The notes under the pieces were generated by a model. It ran no database searches. It saw only the letters and a program-made list of their open reading frames with translations, and was not told the DNA's origin. DNA of 64,000 nucleotides from an uncultured Candidatus Saccharibacteria bacterium (GTDB taxonomy: Bacteria > Patescibacteriota > Minisyncoccia > Minisyncoccales > GWA2-38-27), in assembly GCA_964509645.1 (NCBI GenBank), contig CAZDXV010000002.1, positions 1,934-65,933 of the forward strand, written 5' to 3'. Position 1 is the stretch's first letter; each line of letters begins with the position of its first letter. The position numbers were made by a program, and so were the translations under genes. This document shows, piece after piece, positions 11,091-42,448 of this stretch.

Positions 11091-12248
11091 TTACTTCTCA
11101 ATGCACATCAATCTCTGCCTTAGATTGCAGTATTTTCCTTGGGAGGGACTGAGTTTGGTTTCTGTTTCTCCGAGTCCTAAGGCTCCAGAAGCTACTGCAT
11201 CTGTAGATTTTCCCTGGGGCGTATAACAGGTTGGAAAGGAGGGCTTTGAAGCACCAACAGGTACAGGATAGCCCTCTACAAACTTGTCTGATCTCGTCCA
11301 ATTCTGACAGGTAGTTGTAAAGGTGTATTTTTCTGCCAGGTTCGCATAAGGATCGGCGGCAACAGAGGCTATAATTTCGCAATTCTTTTTACTCTGACCC
11401 GTAACCCGCCCCAGCCATACTTCGCCAAGCTTCTGATAGAAAGAGTTTCCCAGTCTTTTTTGATTTAAATCTTTCTCGTCTGAAAACTTCTTTAAAAACT
11501 CGTTAATATTCTTACCCAAAACCCTATGGCACGTATCTCCTCTTAAAAGAACAGCTTCTGCCTGAGCGTCAACATACGTCCCTTCCGTTCCTCTTTCTGT
11601 GTCTTCTAGTCTTTGAAGCGCCGTCTCGTTATCTCCGTCTCCACCTAGAAAAGCCATCCACTCTCCTTCGTATCCCAAATTATCAGCTTCTGATTGACAC
11701 TTCTCGTCTGCTCCAATCATTCCCCCCAAATCACCCGTATATTTTTCTTCTGTAATAAAGACCTTCCTTAGGTCAGGGTAATCGCTTGGAATATAGGGCC
11801 ATTCGTTTTGAAGAGAAATAGCATCGCATGTAGCAAGTTCCGGGAAAACGATTGCAAAAGCTCCATCAGAATAATCTATTACATTCCCCTCCTGCCAAGG
11901 ATATTCAAAAATAGCAACCCAGTAATCATCTCTGTATTCCTGGCCGGGGTGTATTTTCCAGCTGTATTCTTCATTTCCCGCTGCAATGTTTTTTGCTATC
12001 CATTTAGGCTCTGATCCTTTAAAAAGGACTATTCCCACTTTGTCTACTCCTCTTGATTTCCATTTTATATTATATGTCTCCCCTATCTGCCACCCCTCTC
12101 TTCCATTAGGAGAGATTATTTCCATATTTTTAGTAAAATGGGTATAAAAAAGATAAAACAAAAAACTAAACACGATTAAAACTGCAACTATTATAACGTA
12201 TAAAAGATTTCTCTCTATTGTGAATTTATCCAAAAAAGAAGTGTTCAT
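11091..12248 (-). CDS. Secreted/anchored protein with Kre9/KNH-like N-domain and DUF1554-like Cys-rich C-domain (tentative)
   Basis: N-terminal TM helix. SPNGREGWQIGETYNIKWKSRG pattern. GDLGGMIGADEKCQSEADNLGYEGEWMAFLG resembles the DUF1554 core. Confidence 0.5.
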   Translation of the reverse strand: MNTSFLDKFTIERNLLYVIIVAVLIVFSFLFYLFYTHFTKNMEIISPNGREGWQIGETYNIKWKSRGVDKVGIVLFKGSEPKWIAKNIAAGNEEYSWKIHPGQEYRDDYWVAIFEYPWQEGNVIDYSDGAFAIVFPELATCDAISLQNEWPYIPSDYPDLRKVFITEEKYTGDLGGMIGADEKCQSEADNLGYEGEWMAFLGGDGDNETALQRLEDTERGTEGTYVDAQAEAVLLRGDTCHRVLGKNINEFLKKFSDEKDLNQKRLGNSFYQKLGEVWLGRVTGQSKKNCEIIASVAADPYANLAEKYTFTTTCQNWTRSDKFVEGYPVPVGASKPSFPTCYTPQGKSTDAVASGALGLGETETKLSPSQGKYCNLRQRLMCIEK

Positions 12249-14453: not shown

Positions 14454-15064
14454 TTTTCAATAAGAGGAACGAAGGTAAATCCTTCATGCTCTTCTTTTTT
14501 AAGCTTTCCACCTTTCTTTTCTAAAACCCAGATAGAATGCCTTACGGGAGTTACAATTATTCCGCCCTCTTTAAGCTGTTTTTTCCAGGCTAAGGGTATT
14601 TTATCTTGAACTGCAGCAGAAGCTAAAATTTTATCAAAAGGAGCTTCACTTTTATACCCTTTTGTTCCATCAGCTAAAGCAAACTGAGCTGTTCCTTTTT
14701 TAATAAAGTTGTATTTAGAAACATTTTTTTCCCCAAACTCCCTTAGCTCGGGAATAACTTCTAAAGCTACAACTTTTCCCTTATCTCCCACTAAATAGGA
14801 TAAAAGAGCTGTAGTCCAACCAGATCCGGAACCAATATCTAAAACAATATCTCCTTCCGAAACTTGAAGTTTTTCTATCATAAAAGCCACAACTAGGGGC
14901 TGAGATATTGTTTGATCAAATCCTATAGAAAAAGCCTCATTGACTTCAGCTAAATTCCTTATTTCTTCTGGCATAAAATCTGCCCTGTCAATACTCCTAA
15001 AGGCATCAATAACCTTATCTGTTTTAAGCCACCCTTCTTTGATTAAATCATCAACTAAACTCAT
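14450..15064 (-). CDS. pcm: Protein-L-isoaspartate O-methyltransferase
   Basis: QTISQP motif and SAM motif VLDIGSGSGWTTALL. Confidence 0.85.
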   Translation of the reverse strand: MSLVDDLIKEGWLKTDKVIDAFRSIDRADFMPEEIRNLAEVNEAFSIGFDQTISQPLVVAFMIEKLQVSEGDIVLDIGSGSGWTTALLSYLVGDKGKVVALEVIPELREFGEKNVSKYNFIKKGTAQFALADGTKGYKSEAPFDKILASAAVQDKIPLAWKKQLKEGGIIVTPVRHSIWVLEKKGGKLKKEEHEGFTFVPLIEK

Positions 15065-15558
15065 AGAAGAGGATGCCTTAATTTAAAAAATATCTTTCTT
15101 AAAAGAGGTAAGCGGTTAAAAAACAAAACACCGTCCAAATGATCTATTTCATGCTGAAAAACTCTTGCAGCTAAACCCTCTGCTTTAATTCTTACTTTCT
15201 CTTCTTTTTTATTCAGAGCTTCAACTTCTATTTTTTGAGCCCTGTTTATTTTCAAAAAAATACCGGGGAAACTTAGACATCCTTCTTCTCCTAATTCTTT
15301 TTCCTTGCTTTTATTGATAATCTTAGGATTTGCCAATACCAAAACCCCTCCTTCTTTAGGATCCGCTACAGCCATTATTCTTTTTGAGATCCCGACCTGA
15401 GGAGCAGCTAGTCCGATACCGTCTTTTTTAACCATAGTTTCTGCCAAGCTGTCAGCAAATTTTTGGTCTATTCCATTTACTTTCTCTGCTTTTTTTCTTA
15501 AAACAGGATCTCTAAATTTTCTTATCTCTAATAAAGACATATACTTATGATATGACAT
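15061..15558 (-). CDS. def: Peptide deformylase
   Basis: Motifs GIGLAAPQ, EGCLSFPG and HEIDHLDG. Confidence 0.95.
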   Translation of the reverse strand: MSYHKYMSLLEIRKFRDPVLRKKAEKVNGIDQKFADSLAETMVKKDGIGLAAPQVGISKRIMAVADPKEGGVLVLANPKIINKSKEKELGEEGCLSFPGIFLKINRAQKIEVEALNKKEEKVRIKAEGLAARVFQHEIDHLDGVLFFNRLPLLRKIFFKLRHPLL

Positions 15559-16359: not shown

Positions 16360-16365
16360 GACTTG

Positions 16366-16449
16366 TGGGCAGGGAGGGATTTGCACCCCCGAAGGTCAGA
16401 GACCGTCGGATTTACAGTCCGATGCCTTTGTCTGCTCAGCCACCTGCCC
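16366..16449 (-). tRNA. tRNA-Tyr (anticodon GTA), class II long variable arm; atypical A18 and G55
   Basis: Hand fold: GGGCAGG acceptor, D-loop AGCAGACAA, anticodon loop CTGTAAA, long variable arm, T-arm GGGGG-TGCAAAT-CCCTC, discriminator A. Confidence 0.85.
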
Positions 16450-19712: not shown

Positions 19713-20312
19713 TCAACTGTTTTTGAAGGATTTCCTATGTATCTTACATAAACCATACTCTTTTATCATTCTTTTATGAAGCTTTGTACCATAACCCTTG
19801 TGCTTGTCAAAACGATAAAAGGGATACTTTTTATGATATCTTAACATAGCTCTATCTCTTACAACCTTAGCTATAACAGAAGCCAAGGCGCAAGAAAAAA
19901 CCTTTTCATCGCCCTTAATAATGCTTTTTTGGGAAATATTAATATCAATCTCAATATTCCCGTCTATAATCAAAAAATCAGCATCTTTTCTCAAGTTAAC
20001 CACAGCTCTTTTCATGGCCAAGCGAGTAGCTTCTAAAATATTGATTCTGTCTATAACTTTTTCTGAAACTCTGCCTATCCCCCACTCTATGCGAGGATCT
20101 TTTTTGGCTTTCTTAAATATTTCTTCTCTTTGAGAAAAGCTTAAATCTTTAGAGTTTTTTAGTTTAGGAAAAGAAACTTCTTTTCCTACAACTACAGCAG
20201 CTGCCACAACAGAAGAAGCCAAAGGACCTCTTCCCACCTCATCGATGCCAACAATGCTTCTAAACCCTTTTCTCCTTAATTTATTCTCTTCTCTAAAATT
20301 AGGGTATCTCAT
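19713..20312 (-). CDS. rnhB: Ribonuclease HII
   Basis: GIDEVGRGPLA motif and DSKDLS. Confidence 0.9.
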   Translation of the reverse strand: MRYPNFREENKLRRKGFRSIVGIDEVGRGPLASSVVAAAVVVGKEVSFPKLKNSKDLSFSQREEIFKKAKKDPRIEWGIGRVSEKVIDRINILEATRLAMKRAVVNLRKDADFLIIDGNIEIDINISQKSIIKGDEKVFSCALASVIAKVVRDRAMLRYHKKYPFYRFDKHKGYGTKLHKRMIKEYGLCKIHRKSFKNS

Positions 20313-34685: not shown

Positions 34686-36632
<1,947 letters not shown>

Positions 36633-38618
36633 TTATTTTCTTACTTGCCATTGGACTTCTGACTCCAATGCCTTTATAATTTTATCCTGCATTTTGCTTA
36701 TCTCCTTGTTTTCTAAGGTCCTATCTTTTGCTTGGTATATAATGTGAAAAGCTAGATTCTTTTTTCCTCCCGGAAGGCCTTCTTCTTCATAAATATCGAA
36801 AAGATCAACATCTCTCACCAAAGACCCCCCCGTTTTATTAATTATATTCATAACATCCTCCACTTTTACTCCCAAGGGAACTAAAACCGCAACATCTCTT
36901 ACGGCCGAAGGATAGCGGGAAATAGGCTGATATTCTTGCTCCTCTGAGGCTATCTTCTGTAATTTTTCAAAATCAATTTCAAAAGCTACAACCTTTCTAT
37001 CTATCTTCATCTTCCTTAAGACATCAGAGGATATTTCCCCCAGAAAACCTATCTCTTCAGAGCCAACTTTGATTTCGGCGCCTCTTCTCTTCTCCCAAAG
37101 ACTCTTTTCTTCTGGAGTAGCCTTAAAATCGTCATACCATATTTCGCTAATCCCCATCCTCTCTAAAAGCTCGTCTGATATTCCTTTAAGGGAATAAAAG
37201 TCCATTTTGTCGGAAAAAACAAAAAGCATCTTTTTTTCTTTTTTTAAAAACACCTTTCCTAATTCAAAAATATTAATTTCCTGAAAATTATTCGCATTTT
37301 CCTTGATGTTTTTCAAAAGGTTAGGCGCTAAGCTGGGCCTTAAATATTCCTGGTCAGAGCTTAAGGGGTTATCAAGAGCTTTTAAGCTGCCTTTTTTATA
37401 ATTAAAGTCCTCTGCTTGTTTTTTAGATATAAAAGAATAATTATATATTTCGGAGAACCTCATCTCTTTTAAGTTGTCTTTAACAAAGTTCTCCCAAAAA
37501 ATAGAGAAATTCTTTTGAGGAGGAACAAGAGCCGCTGAAGGAAAAACAGCCGGTATATTTTCAAAACCGTAGATTCTCCCCGCTTCTTCTGCCAGATCTT
37601 CTTCTATTGAGATGTCCAGCCTAAAAGTAGGAATTCTGACTTTTTTGCCAAGAACTTCAAACCCCAGTCTTTTAAAGATGCTGTCTATCTCTTTGTCTTT
37701 AATATCAATACCTAAAAGTTTTCTTAAATAGTCCTTGTTAAGCTTTACTGTTTTTGGGGTTCTCTTTTTAGGATAGCAATCTATTAAACCGGAGGCGTCT
37801 TTTCCGTTGGCTTCTTTTTCCACTAGAAAAGCTGCTCTATTTATGGCTTTTTCTGTTAGATTGGGATCAATTTCGTTCTCAAACCTCCAGGAAGCATCAG
37901 TTTTAAGATCAAGTTTTCGGGAGGTCTTCCTTATTAAAGAATATTTAAAGTTAGCAGATTCCAGAATTATTGTTTTGGTGTCTTTTTCTATCTCGGCTTT
38001 CTTCCCTCCCTTTATTCCAGCTACAGCCAAAGGGCTTTTATTGTCTGCTATAACTAAAATATCCTTGCTCAGTTTGTATTTGTTACCATCTAAGCTTACA
38101 ATCTCTTCTCCTTCTTTTGCTCTTCTTACTATAATTTTCTCTGAAACCTTCTCGTAATCAAAGGCATGAAGAGGTTGACCTGTTTCAAGCATGACATAGT
38201 TTGCAATGTCCACTATATTGTTAATTGGCTGAAGACCGCAGGCCTCAAGCCTGTCTTTAATCCATTTTGGGGAAGGCCCCACTTTGACACCTTCCATAAC
38301 TCTTGCTGTATAGCGAGGGCAGTTTTTTTTATCTTTGACTTCAACTTTTAAAAGGTTCTTTTTTCCATTCTTTATCTTGCTCTCCGGTTTCTTCATCTTT
38401 TTGCTTAAGATAGCCGATATCTCTCGGGCCACTCCCTCATGAGAAAGGCAGTCTGAAGATCTATTGGAAAGAATATCAATATCAAGAAGAAAATCTCCTT
38501 TTTTCTTTTTAATGCCTTCTACCTCAAAGCTGTGCATAGTTAAAAGATCTGCCAGTTTTTCAGGTTTTAAAATTCTATTTTCAAAAAAAGATTGTAGCCA
38601 GTTATAGGAAAAAATCAT
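36633..38618 (-). CDS. pheT: Phenylalanyl-tRNA synthetase beta subunit lacking the N-terminal OB (B2) tRNA-binding domain
   Basis: MIFSYNWLQSF start leads directly to DIDILSNRSSDCLSHEGVAREI. B3/4, B5 and FDX-ACB-like regions are present. Confidence 0.9.
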   Translation of the reverse strand: MIFSYNWLQSFFENRILKPEKLADLLTMHSFEVEGIKKKKGDFLLDIDILSNRSSDCLSHEGVAREISAILSKKMKKPESKIKNGKKNLLKVEVKDKKNCPRYTARVMEGVKVGPSPKWIKDRLEACGLQPINNIVDIANYVMLETGQPLHAFDYEKVSEKIIVRRAKEGEEIVSLDGNKYKLSKDILVIADNKSPLAVAGIKGGKKAEIEKDTKTIILESANFKYSLIRKTSRKLDLKTDASWRFENEIDPNLTEKAINRAAFLVEKEANGKDASGLIDCYPKKRTPKTVKLNKDYLRKLLGIDIKDKEIDSIFKRLGFEVLGKKVRIPTFRLDISIEEDLAEEAGRIYGFENIPAVFPSAALVPPQKNFSIFWENFVKDNLKEMRFSEIYNYSFISKKQAEDFNYKKGSLKALDNPLSSDQEYLRPSLAPNLLKNIKENANNFQEINIFELGKVFLKKEKKMLFVFSDKMDFYSLKGISDELLERMGISEIWYDDFKATPEEKSLWEKRRGAEIKVGSEEIGFLGEISSDVLRKMKIDRKVVAFEIDFEKLQKIASEEQEYQPISRYPSAVRDVAVLVPLGVKVEDVMNIINKTGGSLVRDVDLFDIYEEEGLPGGKKNLAFHIIYQAKDRTLENKEISKMQDKIIKALESEVQWQVRK

Positions 38619-42146: not shown

Positions 42147-42175
42147 TTGATTTTATCTAAAAAATCAGTTAGTAT
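42147..42175 (+). promoter_or_regulatory. Candidate tRNA-cluster promoter TTGATT-17-TAGTAT
   Basis: The predicted start site falls about 7 nt downstream, at or near position 1 of the first tRNA. Confidence 0.4.
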
Positions 42176-42181
42176 ATTACT

Positions 42182-42252
42182 TGCGGGGTGGAGAAGTAGT
42201 ATCTCGCGAGGCCCATAACCTCGAGACGTCAGTGCAACTCTGGCCCCCGCAA
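42182..42252 (+). tRNA. Initiator-like tRNA-Met (anticodon CAT) with non-canonical C33, A18 and G55
   Basis: Closely parallels E. coli tRNA-fMet in the acceptor (xGCGGGG/CCCCGCA-A) and D-stem, including A11:U24. Anticodon loop CCCATAA, D-loop AGTAGTA, T-loop TGCAACT. Confidence 0.6.
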
Positions 42253-42266
42253 CAAATTAAGCCGTA

Positions 42267-42337
42267 GCCGGGGAGTAGAATGGCATCTAAAGCCGTCTCA
42301 TAAGCGGTTAAAGTGGGTTCGATTCCCGCCCCCGGCA
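42267..42337 (+). tRNA. tRNA with CAT anticodon (elongator Met or Ile2), compact and slightly irregular
   Basis: Acceptor GCCGGGG/CCCCGGC, D-loop ATGGCA, anticodon loop CTCATAA, T-arm GTGGG-TTCGATT-CCCGC. It has A at position 8 and one extra nucleotide at the D/anticodon junction. Confidence 0.65.
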
Positions 42338-42341
42338 CATT

Positions 42342-42415
42342 GCGGGCGTAGCTTAGCGGCTTAAAGCGCCGCCCTGTCACGGCGGAGACCGTGGGTTCAA
42401 ATCCCATCGCCCGCG
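42342..42415 (+). tRNA. tRNA-Asp (anticodon GTC)
   Basis: Canonical hand fold: GCGGGCG acceptor, D-loop AGCGGCTTA, anticodon loop CTGTCAC, T-loop TTCAAAT, discriminator G. Confidence 0.9.
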
Positions 42416-42420
42416 CAAAC

Positions 42421-42448
42421 AAAAAACACCTTTCAAGAGGTGTTTTTT
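42421..42448. terminator. Bidirectional terminator (tRNA cluster and gatCA operon)
   Basis: Stem aacacct/aggtgtt, 6-nt loop, with A-run and T-run flanks. Confidence 0.7.

Follow-up and report, generated by a model that had tools for sequence, protein, structure and literature searches.

The locus described here raises the question of which of two neighbouring tRNA genes with the anticodon CAU starts translation, and of whether genes that break near-universal rules of tRNA structure can both be functional. The two genes lie in a stretch of 64,000 nucleotides (nt) from an uncultured Candidatus Saccharibacteria bacterium (GenBank assembly GCA_964509645.1, contig CAZDXV010000002.1, positions 1,934 to 65,933; hereafter the window), in which ARAGORN found seven tRNA genes, three of them forming a tight cluster on the plus strand. 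An earlier interpretation made from the letters alone (the sequence-only reading) had placed two tRNA(CAU) genes at the head of this cluster, had left it unclear which of them was the initiator and which the elongator tRNA-Met or tRNA-Ile2, and had allowed that they might be pseudogenes scoring below tRNA thresholds. Two independent tools, ARAGORN and Rfam, agree on both genes and on where they lie: tRNA1 at 42182-42252 (51.6 bits, E 3.6e-08 in the scan of the 64 kb; ARAGORN 42182-42253) and tRNA2 at 42267-42337 (40.1 bits, E 5.3e-05 in the same scan; ARAGORN 42267-42338). Because these covariance-model scores exceed the gathering score of 29 of the Rfam tRNA model (RF00005), we consider both CAU genes to be real. 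As to which is the initiator, the comparisons described below answer the question in favour of tRNA1, and they answer it in part for tRNA2, which leans towards elongator tRNA-Met through related contigs that carry a tRNA-Ile(UAU). The whole region is very probably a housekeeping tRNA operon composed of a single sigma-70-like promoter, an initiator tRNA-fMet, a probable elongator tRNA-Met, a tRNA-Asp and an intrinsic terminator.

The sequence comparisons identify tRNA1 as an orthologue of the bacterial initiator tRNA-fMet. In BLAST searches against E. coli genomes it matched at a median of four places per genome, with 77-79% identity over 99% of its length, and one of the match sites consists of three tandem tRNA-Met genes adjoining amiC, which are the metZWV operon, as PMC6265465 also states. 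This alignment bears out the initiator-like acceptor stem, A11:U24 and discriminator A that had been pointed out before. In fact, tRNA1 shares with the E. coli metZWV/metY initiators the CAU anticodon, A73, the formylation determinants G2:C71 and C3:G70, G4:C69 (acceptor positions 2-7 are identical), U8, G9, G10, A11:U24 in the D stem and the pairs G30:C40 and G31:C39. The departures listed in the sequence-only reading are likewise present. Whereas the E. coli initiator has a C1xA72 mismatch, U1 of tRNA1 (42182) forms a weak pair with A72 (42251), next to the discriminator A73 (42252), and G29:C41 is replaced by A29:U41, leaving in the anticodon stem (CGAGG/CCUCG) two of the three G:C pairs typical of initiators. 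Instead of U33, G18 and U55 (pseudouridine, Psi), tRNA1 has C33 (42213) in the anticodon loop CCCAUAA (anticodon at 42214-42216), an A in the G18 slot (42198) of a 7-nt D loop (AGUAGUA) that is two nucleotides shorter than that of E. coli, and G55 (42234) in the T loop UGCAACU. The variable loop has 4 nt and CCA is not encoded. tRNA1 therefore breaks two canonical core rules, U33 and G18:U55 (Psi), and both departures are conserved in its lineage or covary.

The comparisons place tRNA1 in a phylum-wide subfamily of initiators in which the D loop has 7 nt and the variable loop 4 nt, A18 is paired with G55 and C33 is usual. Orthologues of tRNA1 are present in two metagenome-assembled genomes (MAGs), GCA_964609075.1 (L002) and GCA_964648705.1 (L003), which share the gene order around the cluster and whose GatA proteins are 78-79% identical to that of the window. 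Across 40 unique A18/G55 initiators, 96.3% of the cells were paired, 122 of them with changes on both sides; none of 500 shuffles equalled the paired fraction, the number of double-change cells or the covariation score, and slid registers gave only 36-51% pairing. The T stem was paired in every case (100%), with compensatory change in four of its five pairs, and between L002 and the window GUCAG/CUGGC is exchanged for ACAGG/CCUGU. A11:U24 is found in 40/40 members, and G2:C71 and C3:G70 each in 39/40. Position 1:72 is more variable, being unpaired in 27 (CxA or AxA), U:A in eight, A:U in four and G:C in one, so that U1:A72 is a minority state, common to the window, L002, L003 and some Saccharibacteria-labelled MAGs. 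At 29:41 the 40 sequences have A:U (25), U:A (nine) or G:C (six). tRNA1 thus lacks a strict mismatch of the C1xA72 type, and with U1:A72 it also lacks a strong 1:72 pair, which is the weaker requirement: the formylase needs merely a pair that can be opened and tolerates weak ones (PMC5393177). Natural U1:A72 initiators occur among sequenced genomes (PMC6265465), and anticodon stems of the au/GC/GC type, as in the A29:U41, G30:C40 and G31:C39 of tRNA1, are found throughout the alpha-proteobacteria and in some mycoplasmas (PMC5389676). Because these variants have already been published, none of the acceptor-stem or anticodon-stem departures of tRNA1 is new in itself. C33, A18:G55 and Patescibacteria are not covered in the available parts of those two reports (PMC5389676, PMC6265465).

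The proposal that A18 and G55 form the elbow of tRNA1 was upheld by strict covariation. Among unique initiators, 78 combine A18 with G55 and 179 combine G18 with U55, and no in-register sequence is discordant; the four apparent exceptions are G18-A19 D loops accompanied by U56, that is, covariation at 19:56. Such sequences stand on viral contigs (L022, L024 and L257), where the D loops AGCGAUA and AGUGACA occur with T loops UUUGA in what looks like a change of the 19:56 pair from G:C to A:U. Of the C33 initiators, 52 have a T loop of the type UGCRA, and in each of these the D loop has 7 nt and reads A-G-N-A-G-Y-A. A scan with the A18-type D arm, in which positions 33 and 55 played no part, recovered 85 intact tRNAs that all carry G55 (85/85), 48 with C33 and 37 with U33. 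Among 1161 tRNAs (loci L001-L342 and the window), G55 was found in 93 initiator-type CAU tRNAs and in one other, the tRNA-Tyr(GUA) of the window itself (16365-16449, minus strand), whose T loop is UGCAAAU and whose D loop, GAGCAGACAAA, has AG where GG would be expected. The D loop of E. coli tRNA-Tyr has GG at that position. The 18/55 counts are drawn from related sequences and do not represent independent events, whereas the occurrence in tRNA-Tyr is independent. This pattern is the signature of a tertiary pair that has apparently been kept through a double change, and it provides a naturally occurring test of the requirements of the G18:Psi55 pair, which is universally conserved at the elbow; furthermore, an A18/G55 initiator would be one tRNA species that cannot be a substrate of TruB. 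Dozens of IMG/VR contigs, filed as viral (L005, L010 and L025, among others), also carry A18/G55 initiators, including a near-identical set from human-associated samples; they may be misfiled CPR fragments or phages with initiators of the CPR type (CPR, Candidate Phyla Radiation).

C33 is present in tRNA1, as had been read, but the rarity then assumed for it did not hold, as C33 recurs in many prokaryotic lineages. A search pattern that joins the initiator acceptor and D arm to the C33 loop (GGGGTGGAG, 14-20 nt, GGCCCATAACC) matched 65 stretches in a collection of viral contigs and at least 120 in prokaryotic contigs with one genome per species. Among the 120 genome matches listed, and judging by record titles, about 34 come from Patescibacteria (Saccharibacteria, Paceibacterota, Minisyncoccia, Nealson-, Gribaldo-, Uhr-, Lipton-, Portnoy- and Colwellbacteria), about 32 from DPANN archaea with archaeal A1:U72 initiators (such as L072, L086 and L100), about 13 from Omnitrophota (such as L106 and L188), Ratteibacteria, Elusimicrobia, TA06 and Dependentiae, six from Chloroflexota and a few from Firmicutes, for example Priestia megaterium (L108). 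In a Gallilactobacillus MAG (L115), two C33 initiator copies lie within a classical Met-Ile2-Ser-fMet-Asp cluster. To these we can add a sample of 44 initiators, taken from metagenome contigs upstream of genes of the tRNA2 type and chosen blind to positions 33 and 55, in which C33 was found in 30/44 and A18/G55 in 37/44. At position 1, 25 of them have C and 18 have A, the lone U call being a one-base offset of ARAGORN. Because of these frequencies, C33 with A18:G55 represents the majority state in the clade of the window, and the matches as a whole indicate that C33 is recurrent in prokaryotic initiators.

These data contradict a published generalisation. Reviews and recent experimental papers give U33 for bacterial initiators and C33 for multicellular eukaryotes, whereas C33 is found here in the window and in more than 180 related genes of prokaryotic type (Patescibacteria, DPANN archaea, Omnitrophota, Dehalococcoidia and some Firmicutes). 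In particular, bacterial initiators have been listed as U33 and C33 has been treated as a trait of multicellular organisms, on which a co-evolution scenario for the machinery of the modification N6-threonylcarbamoyladenosine (t6A) has been built (PMC8887486); the E. coli TsaBCDE enzyme is unable to place t6A on a U33C initiator (PMC8887486), and in multicellular eukaryotes C33 is found only in the initiator (PMC8887486, PMC9023262). The cytoplasmic initiator of multicellular eukaryotes resembles tRNA1 in having C33 and in a T loop and elbow that depart from those of elongators in an initiator-specific manner. However, it has A1:U72, A54 and A60, whereas tRNA1 has U54, U60 and A18:G55 on a bacterial body, and the resemblance is at best convergent. 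Sequencing error was considered and rejected as the origin of the unusual states, which are the same on well over a hundred independent contigs.

A group I intron (RF00028, 68.9 bits) splits the tRNA1 orthologue of L003 after U36 (11125-11368, minus strand), while the copies of the window and of L002 are intron-free. Exon positions C33, C34, A35 and U36 pair there with the intron guide GUGG in the P1 helix, so that C33 strengthens P1. In this respect the L003 gene is like other bacterial tRNAs interrupted by group I introns, including cyanobacterial tRNA-fMet, and unlike tRNA1 of the window; group I introns of tRNA genes are a common finding in MAGs from unnamed phyla (bioRxiv 10.1101/2020.01.27.920355). 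Selection of C33 by the intron was also rejected as an explanation, as C33 is widespread where the intron is absent.

The second gene of the cluster is irregular in another way. The A8 (42274), the 6-nt D loop (AUGGCA, closed by a D stem UAGA/UCUA) and the additional nucleotide at the D/anticodon junction that had been read in tRNA2 are all there, together with G1:C72, A73, the anticodon at 42299-42301 and an anticodon stem GCCGU/GCGGU with one extra pair and without the three-G:C signature. A metagenome scan with its D arm, GGGGAGTAGANTGGNNTCTA, recovered 81 stretches with 56 intact genes; all of these (56/56) carry CAU and are followed by tRNA-Asp, and an initiator precedes them wherever the contig reaches that far. 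In 37 unique sequences of this type 99.4% of the cells were paired, D-stem pairing being uninformative because the search pattern fixed that stem. The alternative of a 6-bp anticodon stem, which the sequence-only reading had left on an equal footing, is favoured by covariation: the supposedly extra junction nucleotide pairs with the first nucleotide of the variable loop as G:C in 25, as A:U in 10 (the window included) and as G.U in two, and it is never unpaired. We therefore describe the anticodon stem of tRNA2 as having 6 bp, with a single connector nucleotide and a variable loop of 3 nt. Every member of the family has A8, whereas positions 14 and 21 are free to vary, so that the canonical 8:14:21 core is remodelled. 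At the same time, G18G19 and the T loop UUCGAUU are retained, and 1:72 is G.U in 22 of the 37 and G:C in 15. These data characterize tRNA2 as a conserved tRNA with a remodelled core, marked by A8, the short D loop, the 3-nt variable loop and an anticodon stem of 6 bp.

A compact core with an extended anticodon stem is known from tRNA-Pyl and from the mammalian mitochondrial tRNA-Ser(UCN), with which tRNA2 shares an anticodon stem of 6 bp, a variable loop of 3 nt and a short D loop. However, in tRNA-Pyl-like tRNAs a single nucleotide separates the acceptor stem from the D stem, G18G19 and T-Psi-C are absent and the anticodon is CUA, whereas tRNA2 has A8 and G9, GG, UUCGAUU and CAU, and it belongs to neither of these families. 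The tRNA2 type would be a bacterial elongator with a combination of 6-bp anticodon stem and compact core that had been linked to tRNA-Pyl and mitochondrial tRNAs. The tRNA2 of L003 is identical to that of the window. In L002, a relative with 79% identical GatA, the tRNA2 slot is occupied by a canonical 76-nt CAU tRNA with encoded CCA and an A31/G39 mismatch (20148-20223, minus strand), which suggests that one type has replaced the other over a short span of evolution.

Which amino acid tRNA2 carries is a separate matter, and we favour elongator tRNA-Met as the probable assignment on comparative grounds. A tRNA-Ile(UAU) (Rfam 64.3 bits) shares the contig with the tRNA2 type in two loci, L360 (4080-4152) and L367 (5195-5267), and would make a lysidine-bearing tRNA redundant there; tRNA-Ile(UAU) is the AUA decoder of known TilS-less bacteria (PMC3575796). 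By themselves, these two contigs suggest lysidine-independent AUA decoding in at least one CPR lineage. Furthermore, the G1.U72 and the acceptor stem of the tRNA2 type resemble the elongator tRNA-Met of Firmicutes and not their tRNA-Ile2, and in other Patescibacteria the tRNA2 slot holds CAU tRNAs of canonical appearance whose acceptor stem (GCCGGYG) is almost identical. The Firmicutes Met and Ile2 references (from Gallilactobacillus and Christensenella clusters) were assigned by gene order, on the assumption that it follows that of the Bacillus trnB cluster. The main competitor, which is rather unlikely, is that tRNA2 is a tRNA-Ile2 whose C34 is converted to lysidine by TilS, with the elongator tRNA-Met encoded elsewhere in the genome and tRNA1 still acting as the initiator. 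Bacteria normally have three CAU tRNAs and the window shows two, and tRNA2 carries C29:G41 and A37/A38, with which the identity elements of E. coli IleRS are compatible, as well as G27.U43, which is found in E. coli ileX. Identity to reference tRNAs discriminates poorly, as global comparison with Firmicutes Met, Ile2 and Ile(GAU) and with CPR Ile(UAU) did not separate the candidates, and tRNA2 had no BLAST match in E. coli genomes. Against an Ile2 function, acceptor positions 4 and 5 are G and G in tRNA2 instead of the C4 and C5 of E. coli and Bacillus Ile2, and neither the window nor the CPR loci retrieved yielded a PP-loop (TilS-like) open reading frame (ORF), a test of low power as these are small parts of genomes. 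The tRNA-Ile(UAU) of L360 and L367 likewise speaks against Ile2, this being precisely the tRNA used by bacteria without TilS (PMC3575796).

The same tRNA-Ile(UAU) genes, by suggesting that tRNA2 is a tRNA-Met, also speak against a second possibility, in which tRNA1 would have a dual function: its U1:A72 pair would let a non-formylated fraction bind EF-Tu, tRNA2 would be Ile2 and there would be no dedicated elongator tRNA-Met. E. coli is viable on a single mutated tRNAfMet, U1 variants included, and natural U1:A72 candidates exist (PMC6265465); the window, L002 and L003 all keep U1:A72. Nevertheless, 27/40 unique relatives from the same operon are truly mismatched at 1:72, and the C and A counts at position 1 in the sample of 44 initiators agree with this. 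Since the mismatched relatives retain this type of second CAU tRNA, the operon can do without pairing at 1:72, and because most same-operon relatives have a true mismatch we rate dual function as improbable. The idea that one or both CAU genes are decaying pseudogenes, or relics of mobile elements or phages made redundant by canonical copies elsewhere, is the least credible of all and is rejected by the comparative data. It could draw on the modest 40.1 bits of tRNA2 and its infringement of near-universal rules (A8, short D loop), on the loss of U33 and U55 in tRNA1 and on the similar tRNAs found in contigs filed as viral. But both genes exceed the Rfam threshold, compensatory changes preserve the helices of both families (96.3% and 99.4% paired), the operon order, promoter and terminator are conserved over many genomes, core genes in conserved synteny surround the locus, and the odd positions are themselves conserved or covarying.

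Several points weigh against reading the region as an operon with an initiator and an elongator tRNA-Met. Its promoter matches the consensus at only 8/12 positions, and the window, being 64 kb of a genome, limits the inventory of fmt, tilS, ileS and further CAU or UAU tRNAs. The assignment of tRNA2 to Met leans on a single lineage that carries tRNA-Ile(UAU), the identity of tRNA2 to two Met references (59-63%) is a weak discrimination from that to an Ile2 reference (55%), and its A11:U24 is unusual for an elongator. Moreover, in the close relative L002 the slot of tRNA2 is filled by a canonical CAU tRNA with an encoded CCA, because of which orthology across the two slot types is inferred only.

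If tRNA1 is the initiator and tRNA2 the elongator tRNA-Met, the system could work as follows. MetRS would charge tRNA1 through CAU and A73, Fmt would formylate it using G2:C71 and C3:G70 after the opening of the weak U1:A72 pair, and G30:C40 with G31:C39 would hold it in the P site. C33 would be tolerated, as it is in multicellular eukaryotes, because an initiator goes straight to the P site, and it would be harmless as the initiator never undergoes A-site selection. Furthermore, C33 would block the formation of t6A37 by a TsaBCDE-type enzyme, leaving A37 without t6A, and A18:G55 would keep the D/T-loop elbow together without pseudouridine, with the TruB target removed. tRNA2 would supply internal methionine, and a CCA-adding enzyme would be required, since none of the three operon genes encodes CCA. 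The def gene that had been reported in this DNA was confirmed (15061-15558, minus strand; TIGR00079, 145.6 bits), and its presence is consistent with formylated initiation. No match to fmt, tilS or ileS appeared in NCBIfam scans of 30 window proteins, and motif scans for Fmt, TilS and TruB in the ORFs of the window and in a six-frame translation of loci with a G55-type initiator returned only Def and spurious short ORFs.

It is tempting to go further and to propose that Patescibacteria have evolved an initiator-specific identity set, made up of C33 and an A18:G55 elbow without Psi55, in parallel to the C33 and A54/A60 of eukaryotes, with the C33 part also shared by DPANN archaea, Omnitrophota and others; we regard this broader proposal as speculative and rather doubtful. 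If true, C33 and A18:G55 would be functional marks and not neutral drift, and t6A enzymes of the TsaD type and TruB would be kept off the initiator. The marks might also be read by the N-terminal domain of IF3 on the reduced CPR ribosome, as this domain is in contact with the elbow of the initiator (PMC9723500). Combined with a promoter adjoining position 1, they would amount to a distinct, streamlined way of making and recognizing initiator tRNA in small-genome prokaryotes. Nothing here is categorically new, as the operon genes are tRNAs in ordinary tRNA roles, but the combination of C33 and A18:G55 in a bacterial initiator contradicts published generalisations. In the open-access literature searched we found no report of this combination, of its breadth across Patescibacteria with C33 alone reaching DPANN and other lineages, or of a tRNA(CAU) family with a 6-bp anticodon stem, and nothing on point about lysidine or TilS in Patescibacteria or about CPR initiator tRNA. 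There is also a practical consequence, as the low scores that genes of the tRNA1 and tRNA2 types obtain with generic models could cause them to be mis-flagged as pseudogenes in CPR annotation and completeness estimates.

The third gene of the cluster is a canonical tRNA-Asp(GUC) (42342-42415, plus strand; Rfam 70.9 bits; ARAGORN 42342-42416), and the order initiator-CAU-Asp is kept in loci from genomes (about 20) and from metagenomes (about 45). Upstream of tRNA1, on the same strand, we read a putative -35 hexamer TTGATT (42147-42152), which is invariant in L002 and L003, and, 17 nt further on, a -10-like hexamer TAGTAT (42170-42175) that ends 6 nt before U1. This element falls just under the threshold of the consensus scanner, and as a whole (TTGATT-17 nt-TAGTAT) it is almost invariant across the window, L002 and L003. 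A survey of 48 distinct upstream regions of related initiators (window 42147-42181, L002, L003, L074, L123, L139, L149, L165 and L343-L423), many of them mutually related and not independent events, gave 27 with a promoter-like match, and in 22/27 the -10-like hexamer ends 4-7 nt ahead of tRNA position 1. From this spacing we predict an initiator transcript that would be leaderless or nearly so. Downstream of tRNA-Asp there is a terminator-like hairpin followed by a U run (42420-42448, plus strand; RNA fold -16 kcal/mol, z-score -4.31 against shuffles), which the consensus scanner did not pick up; a hairpin with a T run also lies 3' of tRNA-Asp in L002 and L003.

The window has a G+C content of about 37% and contains core genes such as pyrD-like, pyrF, pheS, pheT, gyrB, gatC, gatA, gatB, mreB, proS, dnaE, thrS, alaS, def, trmD and rpoA. 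The named homologues most similar to its GatA belong to a "Patescibacteria group bacterium" and "Candidatus Pacebacteria", and with the core genes they identify the window as part of a Patescibacteria (CPR) chromosome. Some differences were observed in the neighbourhood. The pheT gene of the window (36633-38618, minus strand) encodes a PheRS beta subunit of 661 amino acids that the bacterial model matches only from profile position 160, with the N-terminal region missing, and in L003 an AbiEii/DUF6922 pair is inserted between pheS and pheT. Finally, the GyrB orthologue of L003 (17843-20258) was called as a protein of 1407 amino acids with two intein-splicing domain hits, whereas GyrB of the window (34686-36629) is ordinary, with 647 amino acids.

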